Origin: a virus
Direction: 5' to 3' (one strand)
DNA: 64,000 nucleotides
UHGV virus genome: UHGV-1362809
Shown here: positions 26,334-51,305 of the stretch, piece after piece
Layout: the number at the start of each line of letters is the position of its first letter
Position numbering within the stretch: position 1 is the first letter of the stretch
Translations under genes and position numbers: made by a program
The notes under the pieces: model-generated
What the model was told of the DNA's origin: nothing
The model's database searches: none
The model's input: the letters and a program-made list of their open reading frames with translations, nothing else

Positions 26334-27347
26334 CTATCTTTTAATAACTGAGGATATAGCCGTCTGGGCAGCTGTTGACCTATGAGGACGATTAGAATCC
26401 GCACCAGTAAACCACTGATACAGTTCTTCCCTTGTTGGTGGGTATAACAATTCAAATGTTGCTGAAGCCTCTGCGGAAACAGGTAAACCACTCGGACCAT
26501 AAAACATACTATCTATCTTGGGGTGTATAGATGTAAGAACAACATTTTGCACGGTCATATATTTACCAATTTGCAAGGTAATAGCTTCATTAGTGTCTTT
26601 GTTAATAAGTTTATTGTTACCCTCAGCAATACTTTTAAGAACAGCTCTGTTTTTCTCCGAATTAAGGTTTCTCAGCGCACCAGTTATATCTACTGTTTTT
26701 GACGTTAGGTTTTTACTAAATCCTAAAGCAGAAGACCCATAGTTAATTGCTCCTGTAACTGCACTTATTCCTTTATTCGCCAAACCAGTAGCCTTATCCG
26801 ATATTGATGTGTCAGCAGCTAATGAATCTAACGCATTTAAGGTAGTACGGGCTATAATACGCATCAAATCTGGTCCAGGAGCTTCCAACATTAACCCTCT
26901 ATTACGAGGCATGGTCAATGATAGTAAGCGAAGTAGAGGCATTACTACTTCATTTAACGGACTTTCATAGGCATTAAACTGAAAATCAAATGAAAAGGTA
27001 GGGGCTTCGTTACCTTTCCAAGATTTGATTTTCGTAATACGGGAGTTTACTTGATAGCCAAAACCAGAGGCAAAATTATCTACTGTTTCTACTGCGCCTT
27101 TTAACATGTTACCGAACAAAGGAGTTTGTCCAAGTAAATCAGGTATAAAAGGAGACCACTTAGAAATGCTACTAAATGTAACTTGTTCTGGTAAGTACAC
27201 AGTAATAGGATCAGTACATTTATCTCCGATATAAATTTTTAGGTTGTAATTCGGGTTATTGTAAGGGCGCGAAATGTCGGATTCAAGTTTATCAGTGAGT
27301 CCCCACTTATCCTTAGCAAAACCTTTAACACTATCCCATATACCCAT
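26334..27347 (-). CDS. Tail/baseplate protein (337 aa)
   Basis: Position between the TMP side and the baseplate hub. Confidence 0.3.
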   Translation of the reverse strand: MGIWDSVKGFAKDKWGLTDKLESDISRPYNNPNYNLKIYIGDKCTDPITVYLPEQVTFSSISKWSPFIPDLLGQTPLFGNMLKGAVETVDNFASGFGYQVNSRITKIKSWKGNEAPTFSFDFQFNAYESPLNEVVMPLLRLLSLTMPRNRGLMLEAPGPDLMRIIARTTLNALDSLAADTSISDKATGLANKGISAVTGAINYGSSALGFSKNLTSKTVDITGALRNLNSEKNRAVLKSIAEGNNKLINKDTNEAITLQIGKYMTVQNVVLTSIHPKIDSMFYGPSGLPVSAEASATFELLYPPTREELYQWFTGADSNRPHRSTAAQTAISSVIKR

Positions 27348-27359
27348 ATTATTCTCCTA

Positions 27360-29525
27360 TTACATTGTTTGTAGTTCAGCCTGTCCAGTACCATTTGCTC
27401 TTATAGGTAATTCAATTTTCGTATCAGGGTTTCCACGTCTAAACTTAGTGTCCCTAATGGTCTTGGACGCTTGATTAAGTTGTTTAGATACGTCTACCTT
27501 ATTTTCTTTGTTAAAAACATAAGAACTAGCAGTAGTTGAAACATTATCAATTTGTGAAGACATAGCTGTAGGTAAAATATTTCTCGGTGCATTTATAGTT
27601 TTAATTTTAGTAATATCCTCAACATTAGTACTTCCTAATTCATTCCTAACTTGCGGGTATTCCTTAATCAAACCGTCGTCGCTAATACTTCCCGTAATTG
27701 TACTAAGTACTCTTTGTCCACTATCTTCACTATCTAGTAATCCATACTTAACTGGATTTAGATACCCACCCCAAGCTAACTGTAGATCATTATCATTTGT
27801 ATAAATATCATCCCCAACCTTTGTAACTCTAGCAAAGCTATTTCCACTTTGATAGAGTAATACGTCTCCATTTTTAAGACTTTTTAGTTTTTGATAAAAA
27901 TCAGGATTATGTTTTTCATCCTTACTAACTAATGCCTGCATGGTCATTAGGTCATTAGAGTCTCCCATATTATAAATATCTGTCAACAGAGACTCAGGAT
28001 TATACCATGCAAATTTTTCTTTATTACCTTGTTTCTTTTTATTGGATATCTGTTTTTTATGGGAAGAAACTTTTTTAGAGGTATTTTTACTTTTGGGGGC
28101 AGTAGATTTTGGTGTCTCGCTACCTGACGTGGGATTAACCCCAGCATAGGTATTTAGATATATAAGTTGTGCATCAGAAATTGGTTGAGCTAACTTATCT
28201 ATACCTTCTATTCCTGTTTTCGGTAAAACATTTTGATAAATAGTTTTAGATGGGTCCCCGAACACTGCCTCTTTTGCTAAGTCCTCAACTGTAGCAGGTT
28301 TTTGATTGGCAATAACTGGATCGTACACAGATTTAGGACGTTCAATTTCAGGAACCTTTGGTTGTTCTTTAGGAGTATCTGTTTTATTTTCAGTATCCAC
28401 GGTTGGGTCATCGCTAGACAACCACTTCCATAGGGCTAAACCTGAAAAAATTGTTACCAACTTTAGTATTTCATTAGCAACCTGTCCTACCTTAGCCCAA
28501 AAACTCGTATGTTTTTCCTTTTTATCATCCTTAGCACCAAGCAACTTGAATAAACGGTCGTCAGCTTTACGCAACATATCCTCTGTAGCTTTTATGTCAC
28601 GCTTATCTTCTTTACGTTTATCCTTTTCCCTGTTTATTCTATCGGACGCCTTTGCTGTAGGAAGTTCCATAGGTTCTGGCAGTACTTGTTCGGTCAAACC
28701 TCCAAGTTCAGTTTGTTTTATCGACGCTTGTTTATTTACTCCAGCGTCTAAAAACTTTTCAAACCCTACTTTTGTACGTTCTTCTTTTAACTTTTTGAAA
28801 CTAAGTCCTTCAAAACGTTCTTCTTTAGGACGCATACGGACTTCTTCTTTAAGGTCTTCATCATCTCTCCAACCAATTTCATCTCTGGCTTCAGCGATTT
28901 TGAAGTTTAACTCGTCCTGTTTCTGTTGTTTTTGCTGTTCTTCCTGTTTAGCCTTGACAAACTGTTTTATAGCATTGTCAACACCACGGGTACTCCAATT
29001 TTTGAAGAATGTAGTTTTTCTATCAGTAGCTCCAGATAAGGACTTAGGTAACTCTTTTTTACCCCTGTTCTTTTTTAATTCTCTGAGCTGCTGTATATAG
29101 TGCTGATACTCATCTTTAATGTAATCAGGTAGGTCTTCGTCCTTTATACGTTGTTCAGCTAACTTTGTACGTTCAACAATAACGTTTTTGTCTAAATGAG
29201 CCAAACGGTCTTTTATTATGTCAATATTGACGGAAGCCGCTTCTTTTTTAGCCTCTAAAGTATCTTTACTTATACCCTTTGGCAATTTACTGGCTACAGA
29301 GTTGTAATCACTTATTTTTGACTGTTCTACCTTAAGAATTTTTTGTAAAGCAGATGGATTCGTTACCTTGTACAAATCCTGCACTTGTTGGTTGGTAAGA
29401 GGCTCAGGCGTCTGTAGAGCAGCTAATGAATCCTTAATCCAACCCTCTGTTTCAGGGGTGGACAATTCGTCATTAGTATCTTCAGGTTTGGGAGCCTGAA
29501 CTCCAATAAATTCCTCGTCACTCAT
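27360..29525 (-). CDS. Large K/E-rich tail-associated protein with one predicted TM helix (721 aa)
   Basis: VANEILKLVTIFSGLALWKWL is a hydrophobic segment. The remainder is coiled-coil-like and charged. Adjacent to the TMP. Confidence 0.4.
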   Translation of the reverse strand: MSDEEFIGVQAPKPEDTNDELSTPETEGWIKDSLAALQTPEPLTNQQVQDLYKVTNPSALQKILKVEQSKISDYNSVASKLPKGISKDTLEAKKEAASVNIDIIKDRLAHLDKNVIVERTKLAEQRIKDEDLPDYIKDEYQHYIQQLRELKKNRGKKELPKSLSGATDRKTTFFKNWSTRGVDNAIKQFVKAKQEEQQKQQKQDELNFKIAEARDEIGWRDDEDLKEEVRMRPKEERFEGLSFKKLKEERTKVGFEKFLDAGVNKQASIKQTELGGLTEQVLPEPMELPTAKASDRINREKDKRKEDKRDIKATEDMLRKADDRLFKLLGAKDDKKEKHTSFWAKVGQVANEILKLVTIFSGLALWKWLSSDDPTVDTENKTDTPKEQPKVPEIERPKSVYDPVIANQKPATVEDLAKEAVFGDPSKTIYQNVLPKTGIEGIDKLAQPISDAQLIYLNTYAGVNPTSGSETPKSTAPKSKNTSKKVSSHKKQISNKKKQGNKEKFAWYNPESLLTDIYNMGDSNDLMTMQALVSKDEKHNPDFYQKLKSLKNGDVLLYQSGNSFARVTKVGDDIYTNDNDLQLAWGGYLNPVKYGLLDSEDSGQRVLSTITGSISDDGLIKEYPQVRNELGSTNVEDITKIKTINAPRNILPTAMSSQIDNVSTTASSYVFNKENKVDVSKQLNQASKTIRDTKFRRGNPDTKIELPIRANGTGQAELQTM

Positions 29526-31561: not shown

Positions 31562-32728
31562 CTATTCTGAATCTGCTGTAAGCTGCACGTCGGGAAGAAG
31601 GTTGACCATACGAAAGGGTATTTCGATTTTTTCTTCCTCCGCCTGTTGTAGCAGTTGAGCTTCCATTAATTGATTTTCGAGAGTGCCAATAGCCTCGTAG
31701 GTAGCTTCAATTTCGATTTGATATTTTTCACCAATTTTATCAGCATATTTAATTTCCAAATCAGCAACTCTATCTCTTAGGTAATTGATACGCTGATTTA
31801 ACAGCTCAATATATTTGGCTTTATCAAAATGAATGTCACGGGCATAAACTACTTCATCTATGCCATGTTCAAATACTTTGGTAAATTCAGTAATATCGGA
31901 CTTAAAGTTGGAAGAATTATTATCTAATCTTTCTACTTTTTCGTCAACACTATTTCCTATATAATACTGGGCGTAGTTAAATAACCATGCATCTTCAGTA
32001 TTAAGTTTGTTCAAAATAGAGTATTCTAATTCTCTAACTGTAGGATAGGTAATACCCTTTTCTCTAAACTGTTGTACTCTTTCACGAGTTTCTGTAGTAA
32101 CAGCAACGGATAAGTTTGTTTCAACTATTGTAGAGATATTTTCATTACCATATTTGGAAACCCACCTTAATTGTAGAGGGGTTTTTGGAAATGAATGTAA
32201 ACGCCACCAGTACATTAAAAATCTAAAATCTGGTTGTGTTAAGTCTCTAATATCCATATCAATACAGGAATCTAAAGTATTAAGAATACCTGAAATGGCT
32301 TGAGATTCTACCGCACCCTGTATTTTGCACAAATGACGAGTCTTTAATGGTCTAACCATAACTTCGTCTTTGTCGTAAAAAATACCACGAGAGGGCAGAG
32401 AAACATGCTGCCAACTGTCGTCTATGCGAGGTGTTAAGCTGTGGGAAGCTCTAAATTGAGGAGAATAGTTATCTGCTAAGTACTTTTTACTAAACAGTTC
32501 TTCTTCCTCATTAAAAAATGTATCTTCTTGTTCTTCTTTTACTGGTTGCGTAGGATACGGGGTAGTAGGTGTTTCTATATTTTGCAAAGAAATATTCGTG
32601 TTTTCCTTTGTAGACAAACTTTCTAATACCTTTTGCATATCCGATTTTTCAGGTTGGGTATTACTACCCTGTTTTGATTCTTCAGATTCTTCAAAATTAA
32701 GATTCTGTATTTGAGCGTTTATTGCCAT
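31562..32728 (-). CDS. Hypothetical protein (388 aa)
   Basis: ORF only. Confidence 0.4.
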   Translation of the reverse strand: MAINAQIQNLNFEESEESKQGSNTQPEKSDMQKVLESLSTKENTNISLQNIETPTTPYPTQPVKEEQEDTFFNEEEELFSKKYLADNYSPQFRASHSLTPRIDDSWQHVSLPSRGIFYDKDEVMVRPLKTRHLCKIQGAVESQAISGILNTLDSCIDMDIRDLTQPDFRFLMYWWRLHSFPKTPLQLRWVSKYGNENISTIVETNLSVAVTTETRERVQQFREKGITYPTVRELEYSILNKLNTEDAWLFNYAQYYIGNSVDEKVERLDNNSSNFKSDITEFTKVFEHGIDEVVYARDIHFDKAKYIELLNQRINYLRDRVADLEIKYADKIGEKYQIEIEATYEAIGTLENQLMEAQLLQQAEEEKIEIPFRMVNLLPDVQLTADSE

Positions 32729-32779: not shown

Positions 32780-35533
32780 TTAATCTATATCATCGACAAT
32801 TTTGGAAGTACGTCTAAATTTAACGTCCTTACCAGTTCTGTCACTATATTCGTCCTCGTACTTCGTAATGTTATCGGAAATACGTTGACGTTCCTTAGCC
32901 TTATCAATCGACTCTTTTAAACGTTTGATAATATCAGGATTTGATTTACGCCTGTTCAAACCAGATTGTTTTTTACTAAGCTGTTGTTTACGTTTTGTCA
33001 GTCGGTCGTCGAAGTCCTTCTTCTTTTCTTCCGTTACACGGTTGAATTTAGAAGGTTTTCCTTCCTTATTTTTGTACTTGTTTTCAAAGGTTTGGATTTG
33101 TTTTATAAGGTTACCCTTATCCTTTGTCATCTTTTTCTGTACTTTGTTGTCAACATCATCTTCCTCATCTTCTTCAACGTCAAGGTCATAGTCTGGCTCT
33201 TTTTTAAATTCTTTTTGTTGACGTTTTTTACCAGCCTCTTTTATATTTTTTGGCAACTTTTCAAGCTTAGATTCCTTATCTTCTTGCTCTTGCACCCATT
33301 CATTTTCAGGAACATTACCTTTAAGAAACTTTTTCAGATTAAAAGCCCGTTCGTAATCGTCACCAGATTCCATAACAGGTTTGAACTTCTCCATTATGTC
33401 AGTGATTTCCTCAGGAACTTCAATACCCCGTTTATCAAGATTCTTTTTTACGTCAGACATTTTTTCAACAGCGTCCTTTAAAGTATCTAAATCATCAGGG
33501 TCTATCTCATTAAGAGCGTCTTTAATTGGTTGTATGTAGGCGTCCTTCAATTCGTCATCAAGTTTCTTTAATTCCTTTTTAGTTTCTTCCTTAGGCTTTT
33601 CTTCCTTAACAGGTTTTTCTTCTTCATAAGGGTCTTTACCTTCGGAAATAAGTTTTCTTGATTCCTCTATCTTTTTAGGGTCTCCCTTATAGGGCTGTAC
33701 CCCTAATTTGTTACGGGCGTTTTGTTCCTTTGTAACACGTCTAATTTCATCATTATTTACCATTAGCCCCTGCAAGTGGGTTTCACCCTCAGGAGTACGA
33801 AGTATTAAATCTCCTCTACCTTTTAACTGACGAGCAGACTGCATATCTGCGGCACCTGCCGCGTTTTTAGTCAATCTACCTGCTAAAACGTGGCTGGCAT
33901 TATCCCACAGTTTTGTATCTTTCAAGTCCTGACCCTGTGGGTTTTGAGTCATTGTTATTGTATGAACGCCAGAGGATCTTGATTCCTGACCAAGAGTAGC
34001 ATAAAGACTTGCTATTTTATCGTAAAAGTCTGTTTTATTTTCCTTGTCATATCGCTTTATCTCGGTCAACATACCGCCTAATTCATCGGTAACAATAGCC
34101 ATTTGAGGTAATTTTTTATCAGGGTGTTTTTTATTCCACGTCTGTACGTCTTCTATTCCCTCTTTTTCAAACAGCGCGTTTCTATCACGCATTTCTTTAA
34201 CAATTTGTTTAAGGGTTTTGTACAAAGCTTCTGGGTCTTGACCACCTCTGATAGGAGGAGTACGAAGAGAAGGACTATCTGAAAATGATTTAAACGACAA
34301 TCCTTTGTTGTCAATAACAATCATTTGAAATTCGTCAGGTTTATAACGAGAAGAAGCATTAAGTAAGGCTGCTTTTATTGCCTGTGTTTTACCGGAACCC
34401 GACGATCCAAGTACTACCATGTGGGAAAACGAAGGGTCGTTTAGATTTAAAGCCTCCACACCATCATCACCCATACCCAACAATAACTGCACGGAATCAG
34501 GGTTTTTCTCTTGTACTTTATCTAACTTATCACTCAAAGTATTATAAGATAAGGATACGTCTTTATTCGGAAAAATAATTTCGTACTCGTTTTTTGACCC
34601 CAATTTTTTACGAATTGTTGGGGTGGGGTATATTTCTACCTGTTCTCTTTTTCCATCTGAATGTACAATTTCCGTTGTATATGATAAGGTATTAGACAAA
34701 TCGTCAGCCAACTTTTTTAAGGATCTTAAATCAGAGGGAGTACCTTTATAGTCATAAACAGTGGAGAAACCATTATTATTACCTGCTTTAAAATCTCCTG
34801 TCAATCCATTTTTAGATAATATGTCACCTATTTCCTGTTCATAGTCGGAAATCTGTTCCTTTTGTTTATCAGATACATCCTTAACTTTTTCCTCAACGTG
34901 CAAAGGCTTAGCCAATGTATCTTTATTAAAGGACTTATATTCTTTTTCACCTAAGTCTGTCGGTTTTAAAGGAGGTAAGGATTCAGAAAAGTCCTCTTCC
35001 TCCGTGTCATCTACCACAGAGTCACCTTTAACGTTTTTACCTTTGGCATCAGCAGGAGTAAACTTACCACTATCGTAATCATTAACAAGAACATTTATCT
35101 TGGAGTCAGAAAATTTACGCACACGAGCCAGTTTATTTAATTCCGGGTCGTCTATGTCACTCATAGCCTTAGTTAAAGCTGCACGATAACGAGTTTGTGC
35201 GTCTCCTTCCGATTTAGGAATGGAGTTAAATATTCTATCAGCCTCTGTCAACATATCTTTAATTTTAGGATTGTTTTCAAAGTACTTGGCTAGATTTTCT
35301 CTGGTATTCTGTTCGTCATTACCAAACATTACGGCTTTTCTGAACTTAGCATAATCAGCTGGAGTCATACCCATTGTATTTTCAGCAGGCTTTTGGTACT
35401 TGTAGTCAGAATCAACTATAGAACCATTCTTAAGCACTTTTTTCTTAGACTTTTTTGGATTACGACCCATTATACTTTTGAGAATATCAAAAAATCCTGA
35501 CTCCTCGCTATAGGTACGATTATTATCTGACAT
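32780..35533 (-). CDS. FtsK/SpoIIIE-family P-loop ATPase-domain protein with a ~300-aa K/E/D-rich C-terminal tail
   Basis: HMVVLGSSGSGKTQ (Walker A) ... MIVIDNKG ... LPQMAIVTDELGGML (Walker B) ... SGVHTITMTQNP...RGDLIL match the FtsK core order. The start is revised to the ATG at 35533 (MSDNN, GGAG 7 nt upstream); the listed 35545 is TTG. Confidence 0.6.
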   Translation of the reverse strand: MSDNNRTYSEESGFFDILKSIMGRNPKKSKKKVLKNGSIVDSDYKYQKPAENTMGMTPADYAKFRKAVMFGNDEQNTRENLAKYFENNPKIKDMLTEADRIFNSIPKSEGDAQTRYRAALTKAMSDIDDPELNKLARVRKFSDSKINVLVNDYDSGKFTPADAKGKNVKGDSVVDDTEEEDFSESLPPLKPTDLGEKEYKSFNKDTLAKPLHVEEKVKDVSDKQKEQISDYEQEIGDILSKNGLTGDFKAGNNNGFSTVYDYKGTPSDLRSLKKLADDLSNTLSYTTEIVHSDGKREQVEIYPTPTIRKKLGSKNEYEIIFPNKDVSLSYNTLSDKLDKVQEKNPDSVQLLLGMGDDGVEALNLNDPSFSHMVVLGSSGSGKTQAIKAALLNASSRYKPDEFQMIVIDNKGLSFKSFSDSPSLRTPPIRGGQDPEALYKTLKQIVKEMRDRNALFEKEGIEDVQTWNKKHPDKKLPQMAIVTDELGGMLTEIKRYDKENKTDFYDKIASLYATLGQESRSSGVHTITMTQNPQGQDLKDTKLWDNASHVLAGRLTKNAAGAADMQSARQLKGRGDLILRTPEGETHLQGLMVNNDEIRRVTKEQNARNKLGVQPYKGDPKKIEESRKLISEGKDPYEEEKPVKEEKPKEETKKELKKLDDELKDAYIQPIKDALNEIDPDDLDTLKDAVEKMSDVKKNLDKRGIEVPEEITDIMEKFKPVMESGDDYERAFNLKKFLKGNVPENEWVQEQEDKESKLEKLPKNIKEAGKKRQQKEFKKEPDYDLDVEEDEEDDVDNKVQKKMTKDKGNLIKQIQTFENKYKNKEGKPSKFNRVTEEKKKDFDDRLTKRKQQLSKKQSGLNRRKSNPDIIKRLKESIDKAKERQRISDNITKYEDEYSDRTGKDVKFRRTSKIVDDID

Positions 35534-35584
35534 TGTATACTCCAATATATAAAGTAATACTGTTATTATTATAAAATTATTTTA

Positions 35585-35614
35585 GGGGTGACAGTGCGTA
35601 AACACCGTCACCCC
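35585..35614 (-). terminator. GC-rich stem-loop, a probable intrinsic terminator or attenuator between the 159-aa gene and the FtsK-like gene
   Basis: ggggtgacagtg-CGTAAA-caccgtcacccc (12-bp stem with one mismatch), followed on the minus strand by an A/T-rich run. Confidence 0.45.
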
Positions 35615-35621
35615 CATCAGC

Positions 35622-36101
35622 TTAAACCTTTTTTGTCTTGTACTTAGGCAATAAAGAAATCCAAAAGTCGTAGTCCTCTAACTTTTTAGATGCCTTAAAT
35701 ACATCCTTCATAAGATTACGAGTTTTTTCCGTTGGATACCACATTACCTCGTCGGAGTCGTCGTTATAAAATATCGGTTCAAAGTATTGCAGTATTTCCC
35801 TACCATTAGTCACTTTACTAAGAGGTAGAAAAGCTACTAATTTTTTAGTATCTATCATTAAAGGCTTTTTACCTTTAAGCATAAACCCTAACTCTGTCAA
35901 ATACACGTTATACCCTAAACTTACTCCATTATTGTTCCAATACAAAATGGATGACTGATTTATAGTGCGAGGAAGCTGCACTCCTAAACATAGAGTATTT
36001 AGTCTATTGTTATAAAACCAAAAACAAAATGGAATAGATGATATGTCTGTATTGAATTGGGTAGGTATGTTAGACTTTATATACTCAAACACTCGATTCA
36101 T
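35622..36101 (-). CDS. Hypothetical protein (159 aa)
   Basis: ORF only. Confidence 0.4.
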   Translation of the reverse strand: MNRVFEYIKSNIPTQFNTDISSIPFCFWFYNNRLNTLCLGVQLPRTINQSSILYWNNNGVSLGYNVYLTELGFMLKGKKPLMIDTKKLVAFLPLSKVTNGREILQYFEPIFYNDDSDEVMWYPTEKTRNLMKDVFKASKKLEDYDFWISLLPKYKTKKV

Positions 36102-36632
36102 TTATTTTACCTTTTCAAAGGAAATAAGATTTTCTAATCTAAAAGACCTAAATGCAGGAGGATCTAATTTAGTATCTACAACTTTGACTACATTAGGGTT
36201 GGACTTAATTGGTTTGCCCGATTTAGAACCTTTAAACATATAGTCAGCTACATATTCAGGAGATAAAGAACCGTACATGATACGAGTTTTACCATCCAAT
36301 TTCTTGAATTTTATTTTATAGGTTCCTTTTTTAAAGGCTTCCGTTATTTTGCGTTTGGTCAAAGCCTGCTTACGAATGTTGGAAAATACCTTTTTGGCTC
36401 TGTCGGCACCACTAAGGGGCTTAGACTTAACCTTAGCATTTTTAACATTTTTAGCATTTAAAGCCCTTGTTTTCAACATCTTAGCACGTTTCAACCATTT
36501 AGCATCTTTACCATACTTAGAGTGAGGATGCTCTTTAATATATTTAATTTGTTGCGTAGGGGTTAAAGCTTTAAAAGATTCTTCACTTAAACCTCTTGAT
36601 GCTATACACATCAATCTGTCTAATAGTTTCAT
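36102..36632 (-). CDS. Paralog family B member (conserved N-terminal ~55-aa module, basic C-terminus)
   Basis: N-terminus LDRLMCIASRGLSEESFKALTPTQQIKYIKEHPHSKYGKDAKWLKRAKMLKTR. Nucleotides 36481-36550 are ~90% identical to 40811-40880. Confidence 0.5.
   Translation of the reverse strand: MKLLDRLMCIASRGLSEESFKALTPTQQIKYIKEHPHSKYGKDAKWLKRAKMLKTRALNAKNVKNAKVKSKPLSGADRAKKVFSNIRKQALTKRKITEAFKKGTYKIKFKKLDGKTRIMYGSLSPEYVADYMFKGSKSGKPIKSNPNVVKVVDTKLDPPAFRSFRLENLISFEKVK
36468..36632. repeat. Dispersed direct repeat (5' module of a family B gene)
   Basis: Nucleotide-level similarity to 40757..40996. Confidence 0.6.
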
Positions 36633-36645
36633 TCCCGCACCTATA

Positions 36646-37071
36646 TTAAACTAAATCTTTGTACTTTTTATTTATAAAAGATATAACGTCCTTTACATCT
36701 TTATCATACATCGCAGTATATACTAAATGATCCATATAGTACTTACTTCTGGAGTCGCTAAGTTTGTCAGCTAATTTCCAGTCTTCATTGTCAATAGCCT
36801 GTTTCTCAGCTTCCAACTTTTTGATATAAATTTTTATTTCACGTTTGGTGTCGTCAGCTAGCTTATTAAGGGCTTTTGAAAACCCATCAACTGGTTTAAC
36901 CTTGAGCGCATACTTAGGGTCTTTTGCAAAACGAGAATGAGGACGGTCTTTAATATATTTTTTACGCTGAGATTCTTTCATACCGCCCCAAGTACCGTCA
37001 GAAATACCACGAGATTCCTCTACTTCGGGTTTTATACCAGCAACAGTTTCTAATCTATCTAAAGCTTTCAT
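36646..37071 (-). CDS. Paralog family B member
   Basis: N-terminus MKALDRLETVAGIKPEVEESRGISDGTWGGM...KYIKDRPHSRFAKD. Nucleotides 36901-37071 are ~85% identical to 44941-45113. Confidence 0.5.
   Translation of the reverse strand: MKALDRLETVAGIKPEVEESRGISDGTWGGMKESQRKKYIKDRPHSRFAKDPKYALKVKPVDGFSKALNKLADDTKREIKIYIKKLEAEKQAIDNEDWKLADKLSDSRSKYYMDHLVYTAMYDKDVKDVISFINKKYKDLV
36907..37071. repeat. Dispersed direct repeat (5' module of a family B gene)
   Basis: Near-identical blocks with 44949..45113, including ccaagtaccgtcagaaataccacgagattc and ttctaatctatctaaagctttcat. Confidence 0.7.
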
Positions 37072-37082
37072 TGTATTTTACC

Positions 37083-38210
37083 TTATACTAAAAATTGTGT
37101 TCTAAACAGGCGAGTCAACATCCAGGAACTTGTAAGTCTTACAGAGCTATTAGTGGAGGGCGTAATAGCAACACTAAGAACACCAGCACTACTTGTTCTA
37201 ACTAAGTTATCTTTAATTTTTGACAGGTTTTCATCAATATATTTACCTGCTTCATTCATTTTTTCTCTGATATGTCCAGTACGGTCAACTTCTAAGCTCG
37301 TTGACGCTCCCGTAAAGTTGAAGGCACTCATACCCTCAGCTAATGCCCAAGCAGAAAGGGCTTCGTACTCTGCACATTTCAAAAGCATATATTCCAAATA
37401 CTTAGGAAGTTGTTGCAATGACCAACCAGTCAAAATAGGAGGAGCGGAATTAATACGAGCTAACCCCAACAGTAAGAAGCAGCACAGTTCTTGGTCAGTA
37501 AATCTCAGGTTTGGATTGATGTCATAATTGCGAGCCTTATCCATAACACGCTTTAATGCTGCTACATACATAACCGTCTTTGTAGTGCATACATAAACCA
37601 TGTGGAATTCTGTATTTATAGGATTTGTAGGAGATGAGTATTTCCAAGTAACAACAAATGGGTAAGACCCTATATTTACAACCTGTTTTTGAATTTTAGG
37701 AATAACCACACCAGCATTGTAATCTACAATGGTACTGTTATTTAATTTACGAGTAGTAAAGTGCGCTGGGTCTGAGTCGGAGTGCAACAGCGTTCCATTT
37801 TCGTCTGTCAATGTGATTGAAAAGTTTGAACACCCGTCAGGAAGTATAATCATATCTGAAAATAAATCAGACGACATCATTATACTGGAGGAATCAAATA
37901 TAGGAGCTTCACCGTCTAATAATACTGTAAAAGTATCCGTATTTTGATATTGTTTACCATTTACCGTAGCTCTCCAAATTAAAGAGTACTTGGAGTCAGG
38001 TTGCACTGGACAATCTTCTGGTAAAGTAAAAGTAGCGATCCACTGCTCAGGGTGGTCTATATTTTGAAATGCTATACCATTTATAACTTGGTTGTTTTCA
38101 TAGTCTAGGACAGTCCAAGTCGGTGAATCCTTGAATACTAAAACATCTTGGTCAATAAAAACAGTAGTAGCTGTAGTGGGTTGACCCCTTACAACATTGT
38201 TCAGCTGCAT
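37083..38210 (-). CDS. Hypothetical virion-module protein (375 aa)
   Basis: GGAG SD. Preceded by two stem-loops. No motif recognised. Confidence 0.45.
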   Translation of the reverse strand: MQLNNVVRGQPTTATTVFIDQDVLVFKDSPTWTVLDYENNQVINGIAFQNIDHPEQWIATFTLPEDCPVQPDSKYSLIWRATVNGKQYQNTDTFTVLLDGEAPIFDSSSIMMSSDLFSDMIILPDGCSNFSITLTDENGTLLHSDSDPAHFTTRKLNNSTIVDYNAGVVIPKIQKQVVNIGSYPFVVTWKYSSPTNPINTEFHMVYVCTTKTVMYVAALKRVMDKARNYDINPNLRFTDQELCCFLLLGLARINSAPPILTGWSLQQLPKYLEYMLLKCAEYEALSAWALAEGMSAFNFTGASTSLEVDRTGHIREKMNEAGKYIDENLSKIKDNLVRTSSAGVLSVAITPSTNSSVRLTSSWMLTRLFRTQFLV

Positions 38211-38302: not shown

Positions 38303-38878
38303 TTAGGGCGATATTCTGTTTTTAACTAAAGTTTCCAACCTACTCATACAATTAAACAAACGTCCCACTTTGCCGACAAAAGTTTTTCTCCCTTTTTCAT
38401 TTCTGTCGCTAACTACTCCATCACGGGAGCTTAATCTTTGAATTGAACAATCTGGTTTTCCCCTATTGTGTATCAGATGAACGTTATCAACTGTATCCTT
38501 TATAAGATTAACAAAATTAGAATAAGGCTCACGTCTTGGGCGTTTATTTTTTACGGGACCCCTCCTACCAGACTTCTTACTTTTGATGTGCTTAAAACTT
38601 TTTTTGCACTTATCTCCTCCGCCTTTACCTAGATAACCAAGCATAGGCTTTTTATCTATATCCAACACTACACACCAATCAGGATGTCTTTTTCTAAATT
38701 TAACACATTCTTCAAACTTAGAGGAGGGATGCTTTTTTAAGTATTCTATTAAGTAATGAGGATTCTCTCTACATTTCTTAGTAAATATTTCTTGTGTAAT
38801 AAAAGATATACACTTTATATCATAGCTATAGGATACTTCTAAGTACATAGGATTTTCTCCCGTTAAGGTTGTAGTCAA
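38303..38878 (-). CDS. Hypothetical basic protein (191 aa), possibly a distant family B relative
   Basis: YLKKHPSSKFEECVKFRKRHPDW resembles the K(E/D)HP(H/S)SK(F/Y) core of family B. Confidence 0.35.
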   Translation of the reverse strand: MTTTLTGENPMYLEVSYSYDIKCISFITQEIFTKKCRENPHYLIEYLKKHPSSKFEECVKFRKRHPDWCVVLDIDKKPMLGYLGKGGGDKCKKSFKHIKSKKSGRRGPVKNKRPRREPYSNFVNLIKDTVDNVHLIHNRGKPDCSIQRLSSRDGVVSDRNEKGRKTFVGKVGRLFNCMSRLETLVKNRISP

Positions 38879-40048: not shown

Positions 40049-40996
40049 TTAATAATTAGAGTCTACTTCATCTAAAGCAGTATGCCAGTTTTCTTCTTCC
40101 AAAATAGATTTAAAAGCTTCTAATTTGCCAGAAGACATTTTCTTTAAGATAGAATCTAAAGCTTTAATACCAGCTACACCAGTAGATGTATCATTAGGAT
40201 CCAACTTTGAATCTAATTTTGTATACTCTTTAAATAAATTTTCAGCCCAAGCTCTATCCTTTGCATTATAATGACAGGTACCTCTATCTTTATACCAGTC
40301 AACTTGTTTCTGCGCCCTTTTAATCTGTGCGTCATTAGGTTTAAAGGACTTAATTTTTTCAATAGCTTTACTGGCGTCATTACTTGGCTTGTCGGCAACC
40401 CCAGCCTTTTTAATAAGATCATTTCTTAGTTTATCAATATCGTAGTCAACTCCATAGGTATCTCCAAACCAATCATACGGAGTATAGTGTCCCATCCCTC
40501 CAAGATCTTCAACAATGCTGTCACTTATATTGTTATCTAGATAGTCTGTAAATTCCTCAAATGCCTTATAGCTTTTCTTTGATCCAGCTTTTGCCCCTTT
40601 ATTTCTCTTTTCTTCTTCAAACATATTCTGTTGAAGCTGTTTCAATTTATCAAAGTCAACGTTTTTAAAAGCACGACATACTTTATTTTTACTATTACCC
40701 AGAATACTTTTTAAGTTCGTAGATGATTTAGAAACAGGTTTAGAAATAGGCTTTACTGCTCCTTTTTGAGTATTACCTTTCTTTTGGTTAAGCATGCGAG
40801 TTTTTAGCATCTTAGCACGTTTCAACCACTTTGGATCTTTACCATACTTAGAATTAGGATGCTCTTTAATATATTTAATTTGTCCAGTAGGAGATAGTGC
40901 CTTAAAGTTTTCTTCCGATAGACCACGAGCAGTCTCCTCATAAGGCATCTTTATACCTGCTAATACCTCTAATCTATTTAAAATTTTGTTAATCAT
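40049..40996 (-). CDS. Paralog family B member (longest; its N-terminus bridges both sub-types)
   Basis: LNRLEVLAGIKMPYEETARGLSEENFKALSPTGQIKYIKEHPNSKYGKDPKWLKRAKMLKTR. Confidence 0.5.
   Translation of the reverse strand: MINKILNRLEVLAGIKMPYEETARGLSEENFKALSPTGQIKYIKEHPNSKYGKDPKWLKRAKMLKTRMLNQKKGNTQKGAVKPISKPVSKSSTNLKSILGNSKNKVCRAFKNVDFDKLKQLQQNMFEEEKRNKGAKAGSKKSYKAFEEFTDYLDNNISDSIVEDLGGMGHYTPYDWFGDTYGVDYDIDKLRNDLIKKAGVADKPSNDASKAIEKIKSFKPNDAQIKRAQKQVDWYKDRGTCHYNAKDRAWAENLFKEYTKLDSKLDPNDTSTGVAGIKALDSILKKMSSGKLEAFKSILEEENWHTALDEVDSNY
40757..40996. repeat. Dispersed direct repeat (5' module of a family B gene)
   Basis: Similar to 36468..36632. Confidence 0.6.
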
Positions 40997-44441: not shown

Positions 44442-45113
44442 TTAGTCATAACGCTTTAAATAATGAAGAAGTTTCTCATGGGAACCATTTTTTGCTGATG
44501 CACCACGGGAGCGGGTTGACTTATTATTCATTTCTGGATGTTTATCATAAAGACTTTCATCGTCTTTTGGATATTTTGCGGCTCTTGATCCAAAACCAAA
44601 TAACTTTTTATAAACTTTATTTAGTTTAGCACTGCCCTCTAGATCTTCTGTACCGTATGCAACATTAGACATACCTTTAGATAATAAACCTAATAAAAGA
44701 GCATCATTAAGGTTTTTATTAGAAGAGTCAAACTTTTTAAAGTAAGCTTTAATTTCTCCAACAGATTTATCGTCTAAATCTTTATTTTCGATGTCTTTTA
44801 TTATATCAAAGGCTTTAGACCAAGTTTTGTCATCAAAGTCAAAACCACAACGCTTAAAATCCACTGTTTTTTCAATTTCATCTCTTGTCAAGGGTCTAAA
44901 CTTATTGTTCGTTGGAGTATTTTTAACTTTTTTAACAGGTTTATTAGATTTACCGCCTAAGTCTTTGGCAAAACGAGAATGAGGATGTTCTTTAACATAT
45001 TTCCTACGTTCAGAACTATTCATACCATTCCAAGTACCGTCAGAAATACCACGAGATTCTTCGATTTCAGGTTTAACACCTGCTACTACTTCTAATCTAT
45101 CTAAAGCTTTCAT
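44442..45113 (-). CDS. Paralog family B member
   Basis: MKALDRLEVVAGVKPEIEESRGISDGTWNGM...KYVKEHPHSRFAKD. Confidence 0.5.
   Translation of the reverse strand: MKALDRLEVVAGVKPEIEESRGISDGTWNGMNSSERRKYVKEHPHSRFAKDLGGKSNKPVKKVKNTPTNNKFRPLTRDEIEKTVDFKRCGFDFDDKTWSKAFDIIKDIENKDLDDKSVGEIKAYFKKFDSSNKNLNDALLLGLLSKGMSNVAYGTEDLEGSAKLNKVYKKLFGFGSRAAKYPKDDESLYDKHPEMNNKSTRSRGASAKNGSHEKLLHYLKRYD
44949..45113. repeat. Dispersed direct repeat (5' module of a family B gene)
   Basis: Similar to 36907..37071. Confidence 0.7.
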
Positions 45114-45252: not shown

Positions 45253-46038
45253 TCAAAATAATTTACTTAAATCCCTAAACATAGGTATATTCTTTTCGTT
45301 GGTAGCCATTAGGAACGCAGGAGAAGAAACACTGGAATTCTCAAAGGGAAGAATGTTGTGAGTGTTCCAACAGGCGAGTTTTCCATCAATTATTTTGTAC
45401 GTTGGATCTCCCTTTACAATATGTTCGCATCCTCCCTTTTTAAGACTTGCTCCACAAATACTGCAAGTATAGTCTTCGCAGTAGGCACCCATTGATGTGC
45501 CAGGACGTTTTCCTGACAGAATCTCATTAACCAAAATTGGGTCTTTGGTACGGTCAAACCCAGTCAAAAGTATAACTTTCCATAAATTGCCTTTAAACCC
45601 TTTTAACGGACGCATAACAGCATCAAAAATAACACCTTTGGCTTTTGTAAAGTCTTTATTTTGGTGTTCCGCATAACTTGGTTTGCCTCTCCAACCCTTG
45701 TAAGCAATCATACCAATATCAGTATTAAAATCTGTCAGGGAAGAAAAAGGAAAGGCAACGTTATTACGATTTGGCAAATCGCTGTACATGCAGATTGTAC
45801 TAAGTACAACGTAGTCAGTAACATTAGGAGAAATGCAGTATTTTTCAGCGGCAAATGGTAACCACTGCTGGACATCAATAATGGAGCCTTTTACCTGTTC
45901 GTGTTCCTCTAAATCGTTAGAAAGAACCTCTAACTTACCTTGTTTTATTACTTGGTGCATTTCAATAGTAGAGGAAGCGTGTTGACAATCACAATGTACC
46001 TCGTACAATCCGTCGCTGTTTAGATCAAAACAACCCAT
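45253..46038 (-). CDS. Hypothetical Cys-rich protein (261 aa)
   Basis: ORF only. Candidate head-maturation protein by position alone, with no motif support. Confidence 0.4.
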   Translation of the reverse strand: MGCFDLNSDGLYEVHCDCQHASSTIEMHQVIKQGKLEVLSNDLEEHEQVKGSIIDVQQWLPFAAEKYCISPNVTDYVVLSTICMYSDLPNRNNVAFPFSSLTDFNTDIGMIAYKGWRGKPSYAEHQNKDFTKAKGVIFDAVMRPLKGFKGNLWKVILLTGFDRTKDPILVNEILSGKRPGTSMGAYCEDYTCSICGASLKKGGCEHIVKGDPTYKIIDGKLACWNTHNILPFENSSVSSPAFLMATNEKNIPMFRDLSKLF

Positions 46039-46057: not shown

Positions 46058-47416
46058 TTATAATCTTAACATACCTTTAGAAAATCGTTTGGCTTTACCG
46101 TATTTATTCAACCAGTCTTGCACCTGTTCAAACGACCAAAACTCGATATACCTTAAATTATTGTCGGATGCAGTCTTACGTTTTAGTGGATCTCGTGATG
46201 TCCATACCTGTATTGCGTTAGAGTAATAAGTAGTATCCTTATCCACCCAGCTTTGTAGTTGTAATTTGTGAGATTTCTTACGTGGATTATAAGGCTCCCC
46301 ACCGTGAGTCCAACTACCATTATATTCTATGTACAAATCAAACTTTGGTAGATAAAAATCACAACTAAAAGGATATAAATCGGAACGGTACTGTCTTTTT
46401 ACCTGTCTCTTACCAAAACATTTACACAATAGTTTGTACATATCTTCTTCTGGTTGAGAAGTATTAAATGTACCATTTTTACGTTTTGTAGCGTTAGATT
46501 TATACTGATACTCTTCAGTTTTACAATAATTTGTTACACCATATCTTTCTAAGCAAGTTTTTATAGCCTTAGGTTTATTGTTATAATTCTCATCGCCATA
46601 ACGTTGTAGTTTAGTTTGTTTACTCTTTTCCAACAAGTCTTCGTTTTGATAAGGATATTTTACACCATACCGTTCAAAATTTGTAGCCTCTATTCTATCT
46701 ATAAAATTTTCTGTTTTAGAATAATGGTCTTCTCCATACCTATTTTTACAAGTTTGTTGTCGTCTTACCTGTATGTCCTGTTTAAAGTTTTTATCCTTTT
46801 TACAGTGGTTTTTATATGAGTTTAGGCATTTATTCTTAAACTCCTCAACGTGCATAGCACAATCAGCACCATACTTGTCTAATAATGTCTGTTTAGCCTT
46901 TTCATGATTTGTAAAAGTGGCGTCACCATATTTAGACTTTTTGGTTTTTCTACTCTGCTTTTTAAACTGCTTAGTTTTGAAATAGTTATCAGTACCAAAA
47001 TGATCTTGACAGGTTTTCTTATACTTGTCACGAGTGGATTTCAACTGAGCAGGATGTTTTACCCCATACCTTTCTAAACAAAGTTCTTCTCGTCTTGATT
47101 TGGTGTAGTACAAGGAACAACTAACACTACAGCACTCCCTGTATCCTTGTGAAACGTCCATTAATTTATTTCTTTTACCACAATAAGGGCAAAACAATGA
47201 ATCCGCAAAGTTTTTGTCATTTCTATGACGTAAAAAGTACACAAACTCCGACATTGAAAATAAATTCGGAAACTTTAAAGAAAAGGACTTATAATGGTCT
47301 TTATTTACTTTTTGTCTTGATGCGTATTGAACGTCTATAAAGTCCTTGTACCTATTTTTAGCAAACTTTATAGCCCTTTTTACATCTTTCTTTGTATAGT
47401 CTTTCCAATCTTTCAT
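46058..47416 (-). CDS. Free-standing homing-endonuclease-like protein: N-terminal zinc ribbon, about seven ~30-aa L.RYG repeats, and a C-terminal Vsr/DUF559-like PD-(D/E)xK nuclease motif
   Basis: CPYCGKRNK...CCSVSC. The repeats are LERYGVKHP, LDKYGADCA, KNRYGEDHY, FERYGVKYP, LQRYGDENY, LERYGVTNY. C-terminal SCDFYLPKFDLYIEYNGSWTHG resembles D...(n)hIE.nG..wH. Confidence 0.5.
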   Translation of the reverse strand: MKDWKDYTKKDVKRAIKFAKNRYKDFIDVQYASRQKVNKDHYKSFSLKFPNLFSMSEFVYFLRHRNDKNFADSLFCPYCGKRNKLMDVSQGYRECCSVSCSLYYTKSRREELCLERYGVKHPAQLKSTRDKYKKTCQDHFGTDNYFKTKQFKKQSRKTKKSKYGDATFTNHEKAKQTLLDKYGADCAMHVEEFKNKCLNSYKNHCKKDKNFKQDIQVRRQQTCKNRYGEDHYSKTENFIDRIEATNFERYGVKYPYQNEDLLEKSKQTKLQRYGDENYNNKPKAIKTCLERYGVTNYCKTEEYQYKSNATKRKNGTFNTSQPEEDMYKLLCKCFGKRQVKRQYRSDLYPFSCDFYLPKFDLYIEYNGSWTHGGEPYNPRKKSHKLQLQSWVDKDTTYYSNAIQVWTSRDPLKRKTASDNNLRYIEFWSFEQVQDWLNKYGKAKRFSKGMLRL

Positions 47417-47843: not shown

Positions 47844-48731
47844 TTAATTTCCACAATTAACCAACTTACGCCATTCCGTCAATTCATAATGAGGTTTATC
47901 CTTAAAGGACGTAAAATCCCCACCCCAAGTTAGCTTTACACCAAATTGCAAACAAATTTCTTGTACAATTTCGTGCAATTCCTCCCATTCAGGACTTTCA
48001 TCATCCCATACCTTTACACCGTCTACTTCCTTAGTAGGAATAGGATACGGTACAACGTCAACTGCCAAACTTGGTTTGTAGTTGTGGGCACTTTCACCAA
48101 AGGAGGCTTTACTATTACCCTTATTTTTAGCCTCTTCCTGAGCCTGCTCCCCTCTATAACCTTCCAAAATAGATATATCTTTATAGAATAACACTTCCTT
48201 AAATACATCTATTAAAGGTTTATGACAGGTAGATAGTATTCTACTACTTTTTTCACTCAATTTATAGGGCGTATTTCTACGATTACACACAAGAAGTCTC
48301 CTAATAATATCTTTATCTTTTATAAAATGTAAATCTATGTCAACGTCCATCGGGTGAGACATAAACGCACCATATTTGTCTAAGTATTGCTCTATATAAG
48401 GTTTATATTGATTATACAAACCAACACAATCCTTTCTAAAGGCAATAGGATCATATATACAAACTTCCCCGTTGTTGTCTAAAACAGAAGATAGTGCTTG
48501 TGCGTCTTTAACACTGTACTTGTATATAAGTTTTTTAAGTTCCTCTTTGTATTCATTAAACTTGATTGCCATACAGTCATTAAAAATTAAGTCCTGTATA
48601 CGAGTCAAAGCCTGTCTAAGTGTTTCACACACCATACTGTATTGAATAGCAATAGAAGGATCTGATTCTTCATATTTTTTTGGCTCTAATACTTCGAGCA
48701 TTTTTATTATTAAATTGCCTGTTAGTTTCAT
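47844..48731 (-). CDS. Endolysin, peptidase M15 (L-alanyl-D-glutamate peptidase / VanY-like zinc peptidase)
   Basis: SAHNYKPSLAVDV (H..6..D zinc motif) and DKPHYEL (D..H.E) are present. Adjacent to the spanin genes. Confidence 0.6.
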   Translation of the reverse strand: MKLTGNLIIKMLEVLEPKKYEESDPSIAIQYSMVCETLRQALTRIQDLIFNDCMAIKFNEYKEELKKLIYKYSVKDAQALSSVLDNNGEVCIYDPIAFRKDCVGLYNQYKPYIEQYLDKYGAFMSHPMDVDIDLHFIKDKDIIRRLLVCNRRNTPYKLSEKSSRILSTCHKPLIDVFKEVLFYKDISILEGYRGEQAQEEAKNKGNSKASFGESAHNYKPSLAVDVVPYPIPTKEVDGVKVWDDESPEWEELHEIVQEICLQFGVKLTWGGDFTSFKDKPHYELTEWRKLVNCGN

Positions 48732-50283: not shown

Positions 50284-50569
50284 TTGTTTTGTCCTTTTTA
50301 ACTTTTTGGCTATCGGATATTATTTTGTTAAGAGCATTACACTTATTAAGGTTCTTTTCATATTCAGTTTGAGCTTCTTTAATTGTATCTTCTAACGTTT
50401 TATTATTAGACTCTAAAACTGATTTTTCAGTAATTAAATTTTTATTTTGAAGTTCTAACTTTGCGATGTCATTTTTTAAAGAATAAATCCAAAATATTAT
50501 ACCTGCTATGAGTACAATACCTCCTAACAAGTAATACTTTTCTAAACTAAAATAATTCAACTGAACCAA
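50204..50569 (-). CDS. i-spanin (Rz-like: N-terminal TM plus coiled coil)
   Basis: LLGGIVLIAGIIFWIYSL is the TM segment, followed by a heptad-rich segment. The start codon appears to be TTG, and the start is uncertain. Confidence 0.5.
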   Translation of the reverse strand: MVQLNYFSLEKYYLLGGIVLIAGIIFWIYSLKNDIAKLELQNKNLITEKSVLESNNKTLEDTIKEAQTEYEKNLNKCNALNKIISDSQKVKKDKTNEVVKSNSNDLINLFNSRMLNVQNNS

Positions 50570-51240: not shown

Positions 51241-51273
51241 TGTTGTAATCCTTATATTCACACTTTGTTTATA

Positions 51274-51305
51274 TATATACAAAATTATTGATAATTTTGT
51301 ATATA
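51274..51305. promoter_or_regulatory. Perfect 15-bp inverted repeat (TATATACAAAATTAT-tg-ATAATTTTGTATATA) in a divergent intergenic region: candidate operator or divergent promoter element
   Basis: Seen directly in the sequence. It lies between the start of 50557..51240 (-) and the RuvC-like gene (+, GAGGTG RBS at 51310). A TATAAAT -10-like element overlaps its 3' arm. Confidence 0.5.

Follow-up and report, generated by a model that had tools for sequence, protein, structure and literature searches.

Introduction

The bacterial FtsK/SpoIIIE motor, as known from P. aeruginosa and E. coli (structures 2IUU, 2IUS and 6T8B), combines an alpha and a beta subdomain. In P. aeruginosa FtsK (PaFtsK), E596 is the catalytic residue, R620 the arginine finger and T630/Q631 the phosphosensor (PMC9410874, PMC7321959), and cryo-EM together with molecular dynamics places the contacts to the DNA backbone at R632 and K643 of loop II and at K657 and R661 of loop I (PMC7321959, PMC9410874). 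Here we describe a phage gene of this family, located on the minus strand of a 64,000-nucleotide (nt) stretch of the virus genome UHGV-1362809 (hereafter the window) and encoding a putative ring ATPase of 917 amino acids (aa). The phage protein has the alpha + beta fold and the catalytic residues of the bacterial motor, but differs from it in lacking the four-transmembrane (4TM) anchor, the long cellular linker and the gamma winged helix-turn-helix (wHTH) domain, in the replacement of R632, R661, K643 and S634, and in the addition of charged helical, lineage-specific modules of ~170 aa at the N-terminus and 270 aa at the C-terminus.

The best profile match is to the phage proteins of PHROG 1358, from the Bacillus Herelleviridae SIOphi, Mater, Shbh1 and Goe8, which are likewise soluble and phage-encoded and are functionally uncharacterised. 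Unlike the window protein, those of SIOphi, Mater and Shbh1 keep the canonical motifs GTTGSGKS and RAAGIH..ATQRPS(A/V)D. Furthermore, the Bacillus proteins have only ~80-95 aa after the ATPase and no known allelic cassette structure, and in SIOphi, the one case examined, the gene lies among hypothetical genes with no annotated structural genes nearby. A second tier of sequence and structure matches is formed by EssC, EccC and YukB of type VII secretion, an FtsK-family precedent for moving proteins. EssC and EccC differ by three tandem ATPase domains, an FHA domain and transmembrane regions; they align over ~280 columns with no match to the alpha subdomain, and the D1 domain of EssC keeps a basic residue at the R632 position (TQKP), unlike the phage alleles. 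TcpA of pCW3 (6O1W-6O1Z), with a single FtsK-like motor, is the next-best fold after FtsK (template modelling (TM) score 0.59-0.63, target-normalised). It is a conjugative coupling protein, and its sequence similarity to the phage core is weak. TcpA is membrane-anchored. Finally, Pvc15 and Afp15 are also ring ATPases encoded in a contractile-tail cluster near leader-bearing payload genes (PMC11495950), yet this is an analogy of arrangement only: they belong to the AAA superfamily, whereas the phage core is an FtsK-type ASCE (additional strand, catalytic E) ATPase with no homology to them. For phage FtsK-like proteins, DNA handling is the default guess of the literature, offered as speculation only (PMC13299392), and a paper on polyvalent proteins mentions only the FtsK wHTH domain.

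The motor core

The Pfam profile FtsK_SpoIIIE (PF01580) matches the protein with 80.7 bits against a cutoff of 24 (E=1.4e-22), and it is carried by all three alleles described below. PHROG 1358, annotated as 'FtsK/SpoIIIE-like protein', matches aa 239-704 at E=1.7e-41 (1.7e-42 for the exchangeable cassette alone), and in the PDB the sequence matches rank in the order FtsK (2iuu, E=1.6e-13), YukB/EccC (~1e-9) and TcpA (3.7e-4). An AlphaFold2 (AF2) model of the core, aa 216-645, was built from a 60-sequence alignment and reached a predicted local distance difference test (pLDDT) score of 81 and a predicted TM score of 0.74. When searched with Foldseek against the PDB, this model returned the FtsK alpha-beta motor at the top (6T8G, 6T8B and 2IUS; TM score 0.72-0.73 over ~405 aligned columns), followed by TcpA (~0.6), EccC/EssC (beta subdomain only) and HerA (~0.3, root-mean-square deviation >15). 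The TrwB profile PF10412 stays under its cutoff (16.8 versus 20.5 bits, E=0.0034), and the protein, which has no transmembrane segment, falls outside the TrwB/VirD4 group (PF10412 or PF02534, with a transmembrane anchor and an all-alpha domain); HerA/DUF87 gives E=0.48, which does not place it in the HerA/VirB4 type, defined by the HerA central domain (PF01935) and a HAS-barrel. Hence, the FtsK fold called in an original prediction made from the window's letters is upheld by Pfam, PDB and Foldseek alike, over TrwB/VirD4, HerA and terminase-like folds.

The accessory parts of the cellular protein are missing. Pfam gives no match to the gamma winged-helix domain PF09397, which reads the FtsK-orienting polar sequences or SpoIIIE recognition sequences (KOPS/SRS) and activates XerD, and the tail does not align with the gamma domain in alignment A2. 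Likewise, there is no match to the 4TM membrane and septum anchor PF13491 and no transmembrane-like segment in the protein, the maximum Kyte-Doolittle score over 19 residues being 0.74-1.03 across the alleles; the membrane anchor that the original prediction had proposed to look for is thus absent from all three. A single Walker A motif and one ATPase domain set the protein apart from the triple-domain architecture of EssC/EccC. Although its identity to FtsK amounts to only ~22-27%, the central ~430 aa form an FtsK-type alpha-beta ring-ATPase motor, and the protein is soluble. The proposal of a captured segregation ATPase remains plausible as ancestry but not as function: a protein that lacks the 4TM anchor and the gamma wHTH domain, as well as R632, K643 and R661, with which FtsK grips DNA, is unlikely to act as a segregation pump.

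Two further assignments were tried and rejected. A packaging ATPase of the A32/P9-type FtsK-HerA group, in double-jelly-roll viruses with an inner membrane the only ATPase of genome packaging, does not fit: the phage encodes its own terminase large subunit along with a portal and a head maturation protease, and hence packages by terminase and portal. As to an anti-phage defence ATPase, PADLOC matched only the generic FtsK-domain part of SspH and mad8, and found nothing in the three neighbouring genes scanned (388, 159 and 176 aa).

Exchange of the motor cassette

Full-length homologs of the protein fall into only three 90%-identity clusters among 5.8 billion clusters. Allele 1 (P0001; 99% identity to the window) comprises 13 variants on contigs up to 237 kb, several of them 234-237 kb; allele 2 (P0002; 60% overall identity) has three variants on contigs up to 142 kb, and allele 3 (P0003; 53%) a single variant on a 5-kb contig. 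Divergence is confined to the middle of the protein. The alleles are 92-94% identical over aa 1-168 and 87-97% over aa 646-917, while aa 169-340 and aa 341-610 reach only 22-31% and 23-33%, respectively. At the DNA level, comparison of the window with two related contigs, L002 and L003, revealed abrupt and shared breakpoints (35026/33595 against L002, 35034/33601 against L003). Window and L002 are 96-98.6% identical over ~18 kb, the exceptions being the core (35026-33595) and three genes of a leader-bearing family described below; the DNA flanking the core in L003 is 82-88% identical to the window. Within the cassette, no nucleotide similarity to L002 or L003 was found apart from one 57-nt patch shared with L002.

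Synonymous divergence (dS) between the window and L002 is 0.03 in the C module and in the next gene, whereas the core retains ~30% aa identity; the core was therefore replaced and did not diverge in place. Within allele 1, the ATPase segment varies least, at 0.7% of sites versus 3-4% in the end modules, which indicates that each allele is constrained and argues against hypermutation. Furthermore, the three cores are mutual best matches (160, 125 and 94 bits, versus at most 97 bits to any FtsK) and have the derived features TQN and HPDKK(L/I)P in common. As judged from these sequences, they make up one deep lineage-specific clade and do not represent three separate captures. Independent assemblies from ENA, Logan and JGI yielded 17 sequence variants, all with an uninterrupted reading frame of 913-956 aa, which argues against an assembly artefact. 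Altogether, the linker and motor (aa ~170-645) exist as at least three deeply divergent allelic cassettes that were swapped between near-identical genomes at the same two breakpoints.

Two observations touch on the history of the exchange. The N module has a dS of 0.39 between window and L002, versus 0.03 for the C module and the next gene; recombination has had an unlike history on the two sides of the cassette. The 57-nt patch (34082-34138, 82% identical to L002) encodes WNKKHPDKKLP just 5' of Walker B and represents a lineage-specific motif under strong constraint or else a micro-conversion tract.

A donor lineage did not emerge, the profile search with the three cores returning only cellular FtsKs of at most 22-27% identity; P0135 is an ordinary chromosomal FtsK. 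Silent or alternative cassettes of the shufflon or polymorphic-toxin style were sought by tblastn in the window, L002 and L003, and none was found. A diversity-generating retroelement or other hypermutation was likewise rejected, given a 1.4-kb tract of ~25% aa identity with indels and an ATPase that is the least variable part of allele 1. Scans of IMG/VR, JGI metagenomes and GTDB genomes with alignment A1 for further alleles or ATPase-less versions came back empty, as did an IMG/VR scan with the 388-aa neighbour.

Catalytic residues and DNA contacts

The motifs named in the original prediction, GSSGSGKT at aa 376-383, IVTDE (D483/E484) and SRSSGVHTITMTQNP...GRGDLIL, are all present. We compared residues in an alignment of 60 sequences, 57 cellular FtsKs and the three phage alleles (PaFtsK numbering). 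The Walker A Lys, D595, E596, R620 and Q631 are invariant throughout. The contacts to DNA are not: R632, an Arg in 57/57 cellular FtsKs, is Asn in every phage allele; R661 (Arg in 56/57) is Ala, Gly and Ser; K643 (Lys in 57/57) is a gap, Gly and Lys; and S634 (Ser in 57/57) is Gln, Thr and Asn. The K657 column is ambiguous, being aligned differently in alignments A2 and A3. Such a loss is not a general feature of phage relatives, as RAAGIH..ATQRPS is retained in five other phage or phage-labelled FtsK-like proteins (SIOphi, Mater, Shbh1, a Ralstonia 'UNVERIFIED_ORG' record and a gut contig). Of the 11 nearest database matches, ten retain TQRPS, and the remaining one, P0144, was unmatched by the motif pattern. 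Hence, the catalytic set is complete and the canonical FtsK DNA-grip residues are replaced, differently in each allele. To judge by its sequence, the protein resembles an active ring ATPase, with loops for substrate contact that were rebuilt differently in each allele.

These residues bear directly on the possibility that the protein is a genuine double-stranded DNA (dsDNA) pump, i.e. a soluble FtsK-derived hexamer that moves DNA of the phage or the host, either at entry or late in the infection, an explanation that we regard as unlikely but take seriously. Such a pump might pull in the 237-kb genome following its ejection, act on concatemers for the terminase by resolving or segregating them, or remove host DNA, and it would hold DNA via alternative basic residues and a basic C-terminal tail replacing the gamma domain. 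Although the nearest relatives in sequence and structure are DNA translocases, FtsK and then TcpA, and the alpha + beta architecture is kept, R632 and R661 are gone in all alleles and K643 in two of three, at positions that are near-invariant in the 57 FtsKs. Lys and Arg residues persist near the rebuilt loops of alleles 1 and 2, but the segment of allele 3 aligned to loop I (DSSAQDSQNAINSN) holds no basic residue. The last 117 aa, with a net charge of +15, could serve in place of the gamma domain, which is itself absent. DNA handling is also the literature default for phage FtsK-like proteins (PMC13299392), yet with a DNA substrate shared by all alleles one would expect conserved pore loops, which are not seen; the phage also encodes a terminase of its own, and related jumbo phages do without such a gene.

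End modules and charged tail

The cassette is framed by two conserved modules. Their ratio of nonsynonymous to synonymous substitutions (omega) is 0.04-0.06 in the N module and ~0.08 in the C module, at a dS of ~0.8, and both are thus under strong purifying selection. Neither module has a PHROG match or a paralog within the window, and no homolog of the C module was found outside its own cluster among 1.84 billion representatives; a word-index search with the N module gave no matches but also missed its own cluster and is uninformative. The full-length AF2 model, with a pLDDT of 46, was used for secondary structure only.

The original prediction described the C-terminus as almost entirely Lys, Glu and Asp. 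The enrichment is real, but the wording overstates it: these residues make up 45.6% of the last 307 aa (~50% including Arg), as compared with a mean of 20.1% in the other 57 open reading frames (ORFs) of the window, and the tail lies 4.9 standard deviations above the mean of 272-aa windows, whose maximum of 37.5% is below it. The tail is bipartite, with a net charge of -14 over aa 651-800 and of +15 over aa 801-917. Because it is under purifying selection and has no outside homolog, we consider the charged tail functional and lineage-specific rather than filler.

The selection data also dispose of a non-functional origin, whether as a decaying captured FtsK fragment, a functionless low-complexity tail or an assembly chimera. 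The tail is indeed compositionally biased, and the lineage is known from metagenomes only, but the ORF is intact in the 17 variants from independent assemblies, both end modules have omega values of 0.04-0.08, no catalytic residue varies, and within allele 1 no part is more conserved than the ATPase. With a probability that we place close to nil, this explanation is effectively refuted by selection and conservation.

Within its basic end, the tail carries the motif K(Y)..GKxxKFxR twice (KYKNKEGKPSKFNR and KYEDEYSDRTGKDVKFRR; aa ~819-832 and ~891-908, ~32810-33080), an internal repeat that does not vary among the three alleles. A link between this repeat and the leader motif KYIKxHPxSKF described below was rejected, as the patterns differ and share no matches. 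Homology of the tail to a 'Nop14-like' protein rich in Lys, Glu and Asp in the syntenic block of RHph_N46 was also rejected, with no BLASTP match.

Gene structure and genomic context

The ORF extends over 32780..35545 (-), of which 32780-35533 codes for 917 aa and a stop. The coordinates of the original prediction are correct: GGAG (35543-35540) precedes the ATG at 35533, while the alternative start, a TTG at 35545, overlaps this Shine-Dalgarno sequence. Read along the coding strand, a stem-loop, an AT-rich stretch, GGAG, six bases and the ATG follow one another. A second, palindromic stem-loop after the stop codon shows no T-run on the coding strand. A candidate late-promoter motif shared by upstream regions (TTTATAATAATAA) was rejected, not being enriched (23 matches versus 20 expected). 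An identical protein is present on four contigs, one of which is a 237-kb ENA metagenome contig, and the virus is hence a jumbo phage; megablast for close relatives among deposited phages gave no nucleotide match. The coordinates of all features are collected in Table 1.

Table 1. Features of the ATPase gene, its cassette and its surroundings (window coordinates unless a contig is named)
Feature	Position	Strand	Basis
Whole gene, FtsK-like ATPase between lineage-specific N and C modules, 917 aa	32780..35533	-	ORF, GGAG + ATG, Pfam/PHROG/PDB matches
Stem-loop, 15 bp (8 GC pairs), between upstream 159-aa gene and ATPase gene, terminator-like	35583..35616	-	sequence
Shine-Dalgarno GGAG, 6 nt 5' of ATG	35540..35543	-	sequence read
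N module, aa 1-168, predicted helical at aa 58-154	35030..35533	-	omega, low-confidence AF2 secondary structure
Exchangeable cassette, aa ~170-646 (acidic linker, alpha, beta ATPase, post-ATPase helices)	33595..35026	-	blastn, sliding identity
Acidic linker, predicted disordered, aa 169-215	34889..35029	-	composition, AF2
FtsK alpha-like subdomain, aa ~216-340	34514..34888	-	AF2 (block-mean pLDDT mostly 77-92), Foldseek, PHROG match from aa 239
RecA-like beta ATPase subdomain, aa ~341-610	33704..34513	-	Pfam, PDB, AF2, Foldseek
Walker A GSSGSGKT, aa 376-383, Lys invariant	34385..34408	-	motif, alignment
Walker B D483/E484 (PaFtsK D595/E596)	34082..34087	-	alignment; roles from PMC9410874
Arginine finger R519 (PaFtsK R620), kept in all alleles	33977..33979	-	alignment; PMC9410874, PMC7321959
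Q530-N531, phosphosensor Gln retained, DNA-gripping loop II Arg (PaFtsK R632) exchanged for Asn in every allele	33941..33946	-	alignment
C module (charged tail), aa 646-917, predicted all-helical, acidic half then basic half	32783..33598	-	identity, omega, composition
Palindromic stem-loop, 11 bp, 3 nt past stop codon	32751..32776	-	sequence; 100% conserved in L002
Terminase	60221-63751	-	
Portal	57937-59940	-	
Head maturation protease	45253-46038	-	
Head-tail connector	37083-38210	-	
Three small genes	35622-37071	-	
388-aa gene, homolog annotated 'baseplate hub subunit' in PhiXhv-12	31562-32728	-	
Tape-measure-like, 636 aa	29534-31444	-	
721-aa gene	27360-29525	-	
PmgG-like	26334-27347	-	
LysM-like, then baseplate and fibre genes	below 26322	-	
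Leader-family genes, window	36102-36632, 36646-37071, 38303-38878, 40049-40996, 44442-45113	-	
Leader-family genes, relatives	L002:925-1740, L002:6356-7240; L003:3372-4052		

Along the coding strand, the gene order runs from the terminase to the baseplate and fibre genes, with the ATPase between the small genes and the 388-aa gene. The placement given in the original prediction is borne out, as the ATPase follows the head-tail connector and small leader-family genes and precedes the genes resembling a baseplate hub and a tape-measure protein (TMP). The portal is 31-39% identical to those of the Rhizobium phage RHph_N46 and relatives, Vibrio GR11A, PaBG, Motura and Erwinia jumbo phages, and none of the portal-related cultured jumbo phages is among the 259 phage records with an FtsK-like match. 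In RHph_N46 and the Xanthomonas phage PhiXhv-12, the hub/TMP/PmgG-like block is directly preceded by sheath and tube genes, with no ATPase. Because these relatives carry sheath and tube at the slot and the tube of the window lies elsewhere, we place the ATPase at a rearrangement junction of the tail module; the same comparison weakens the positional argument for a role in the virion. Together with the bracketing stem-loops, this position in a variable island fits an accessory gene better than a building block of the virion. The tail-tube homolog of the window is located at 50557-51282 (-), ~18 kb from the hub/TMP block that in RHph_N46 (L005) and PhiXhv-12 (L013) lies next to sheath and tube, and no sheath gene was identified in the window.

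The context also speaks to an ATP-dependent tail or baseplate assembly factor, a chaperone for the downstream hub and TMP in the usual slot of a tail-assembly chaperone, for which we see little probability. The gene does lie immediately upstream of the hub-like 388-aa and TMP-like 636-aa genes, on the same strand and with tight spacing, and its long helical charged extensions resemble TMPs and chaperones in composition. Yet relatives with homologous hub, TMP and baseplate genes manage without the ATPase, and alleles of 25% identity beside hub and TMP genes of 99% identity would be unexpected for an essential factor.

Upstream, several small to medium-sized proteins have a ~55-aa N-terminal leader in common, M(K)xLDRLE..AG.KPE.EESRGISDGTW...KY(I/V)K(E/D)HPxS(R/K)(F/Y)(A/G)KDPK, followed by unrelated and mostly unannotatable C-terminal parts, one with WYL_2. 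Three members are replaced or absent between the window and L002, and L003 has an additional member directly downstream of the ATPase gene. The leader may be a capsid- or tail-targeting signal for variable cargo.

By analogy, the ATPase could thread or load such leader-bearing proteins into the tail lumen or capsid, or export them; we rate a protein translocase or cargo loader of this kind as improbable. Its attraction lies in the arrangement: at least five members of the leader family are encoded in the vicinity, two of them no more than two genes upstream, and L003 has a further one directly downstream; apart from the ATPase core, only leader-family genes were replaced between window and L002; and the order of cargo genes, ATPase, hub and TMP is that of a contractile-tail cluster, reminiscent of the Photorhabdus virulence cassettes (PVC), in which payload loading via N-terminal signal peptides is reportedly facilitated by Pvc15 (PMC11495950). 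The ATPase superfamily, however, differs from that of Pvc15. While the loss of DNA-gripping residues with catalysis intact and the rank of EssC/EccC as next-best sequence relatives would suit protein substrates, the single ATPase domain differs from the triple array of EssC. Moreover, the leader genes lie in the head module beside the prohead protease, where a protease-processed capsid-targeting leader would suffice without an ATPase, and a conserved leader facing a variable ATPase core points in the wrong direction for leader recognition. Equally doubtful in our estimate is the extended form of the idea, an FtsK-derived ring repurposed as a protein or nucleoprotein translocase for leader-tagged effectors, the phage counterpart of Pvc15/EssC. 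Effectors would then be loaded into the contractile tail or capsid, or delivered, and the motor cassette would be swapped together with the effector repertoire in an arms race with the host.

Further features of the window lie outside this neighbourhood. The terminase large subunit owes its length of 1176 aa to an intein at aa ~326-768, which includes a LAGLIDADG homing endonuclease (Pfam Intein_splicing 1.7e-11, LAGLIDADG_3 1e-10). Weakly paralogous genes of ~300 aa form tandem arrays downstream of the fibre genes, at 6578-11966 (-; 22-28% identity, E 1e-6 to 5e-20), and two ~200-aa paralogs are found there as well, at 11967-13193 (-). The structural region also holds a UvdE-type UV endonuclease (5e-30; 52872-53909, -), a DUF7487 homing-endonuclease-like gene between head genes (46058-47416, -) and a Peptidase_M15_4 endolysin (47844-48731, -). 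All ORFs of at least 185 aa are on the minus strand except 15-1523 (+) at the left edge and 28306-29100 (+) inside a longer minus-strand ORF. GC skew is uniformly negative over 1-64000, and the window contains no tRNA genes.

Discussion

Taken as a whole, we tentatively favour the view that the protein is an accessory, late-expressed ring ATPase at the host interface, of the moron, host-takeover or counter-defence type, and not a core component of the virion, although we would not put this at even odds. Its substrate is probably something other than naked dsDNA gripped in the manner of FtsK. The protein would assemble as a hexamer and hydrolyse ATP; the invariant N and C modules would tether the ring to a conserved phage partner or, via the basic last ~117 aa, to nucleic acid; and the allele-specific pore and surface would engage, or evade, a target that varies between hosts. 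The gene may have been inserted at the rearrangement junction of the tail module. Co-circulating phages would exchange the cassette through homologous recombination across the conserved end modules, and diversifying, frequency-dependent selection might uphold its turnover.

Several points weigh against this accessory host-interface role. Hexamer formation, ATPase activity and substrate are inferred. DNA is a possible substrate, given that the alpha subdomain, which also contacts DNA in FtsK, is retained and the C-terminus is strongly basic; Lys and Arg are, moreover, still found near the rebuilt loops of alleles 1 and 2. The alignment behind the core model is dominated by FtsKs, which biases the model towards FtsK, and loop alignments at ~25% identity are uncertain. 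A role in morphogenesis would also suit the tight placement of the gene in a same-strand late structural operon, and the stem-loops around it are putative terminators only. With three alleles from a rare lineage, diversifying selection is inferred from the pattern.

Phage FtsK-like genes were known before, and the gene described here is not of a new kind. What is new, within the searches made, is the combination: a soluble alpha-beta motor between lineage-specific modules, which has lost the DNA grip and kept catalysis, is exchanged as divergent alleles and is placed at a tail junction. The lineage is rare and uncultured, and the function of its ATPase is putative. Phage FtsK/SpoIIIE-like proteins of PHROG 1358 are widespread yet functionally uncharacterised, and the protein offers a natural separation-of-function variant that bears on substrate switching in the FtsK family, between DNA and protein as between FtsK and EssC. 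In this phage, the motor itself acts as the swappable cassette, rather than a receptor-binding tip or a small anti-defence protein. If host pressure is indeed what drives the exchange, a ring ATPase would be a front-line determinant of phage-host specificity, with defined alleles at hand to compare.

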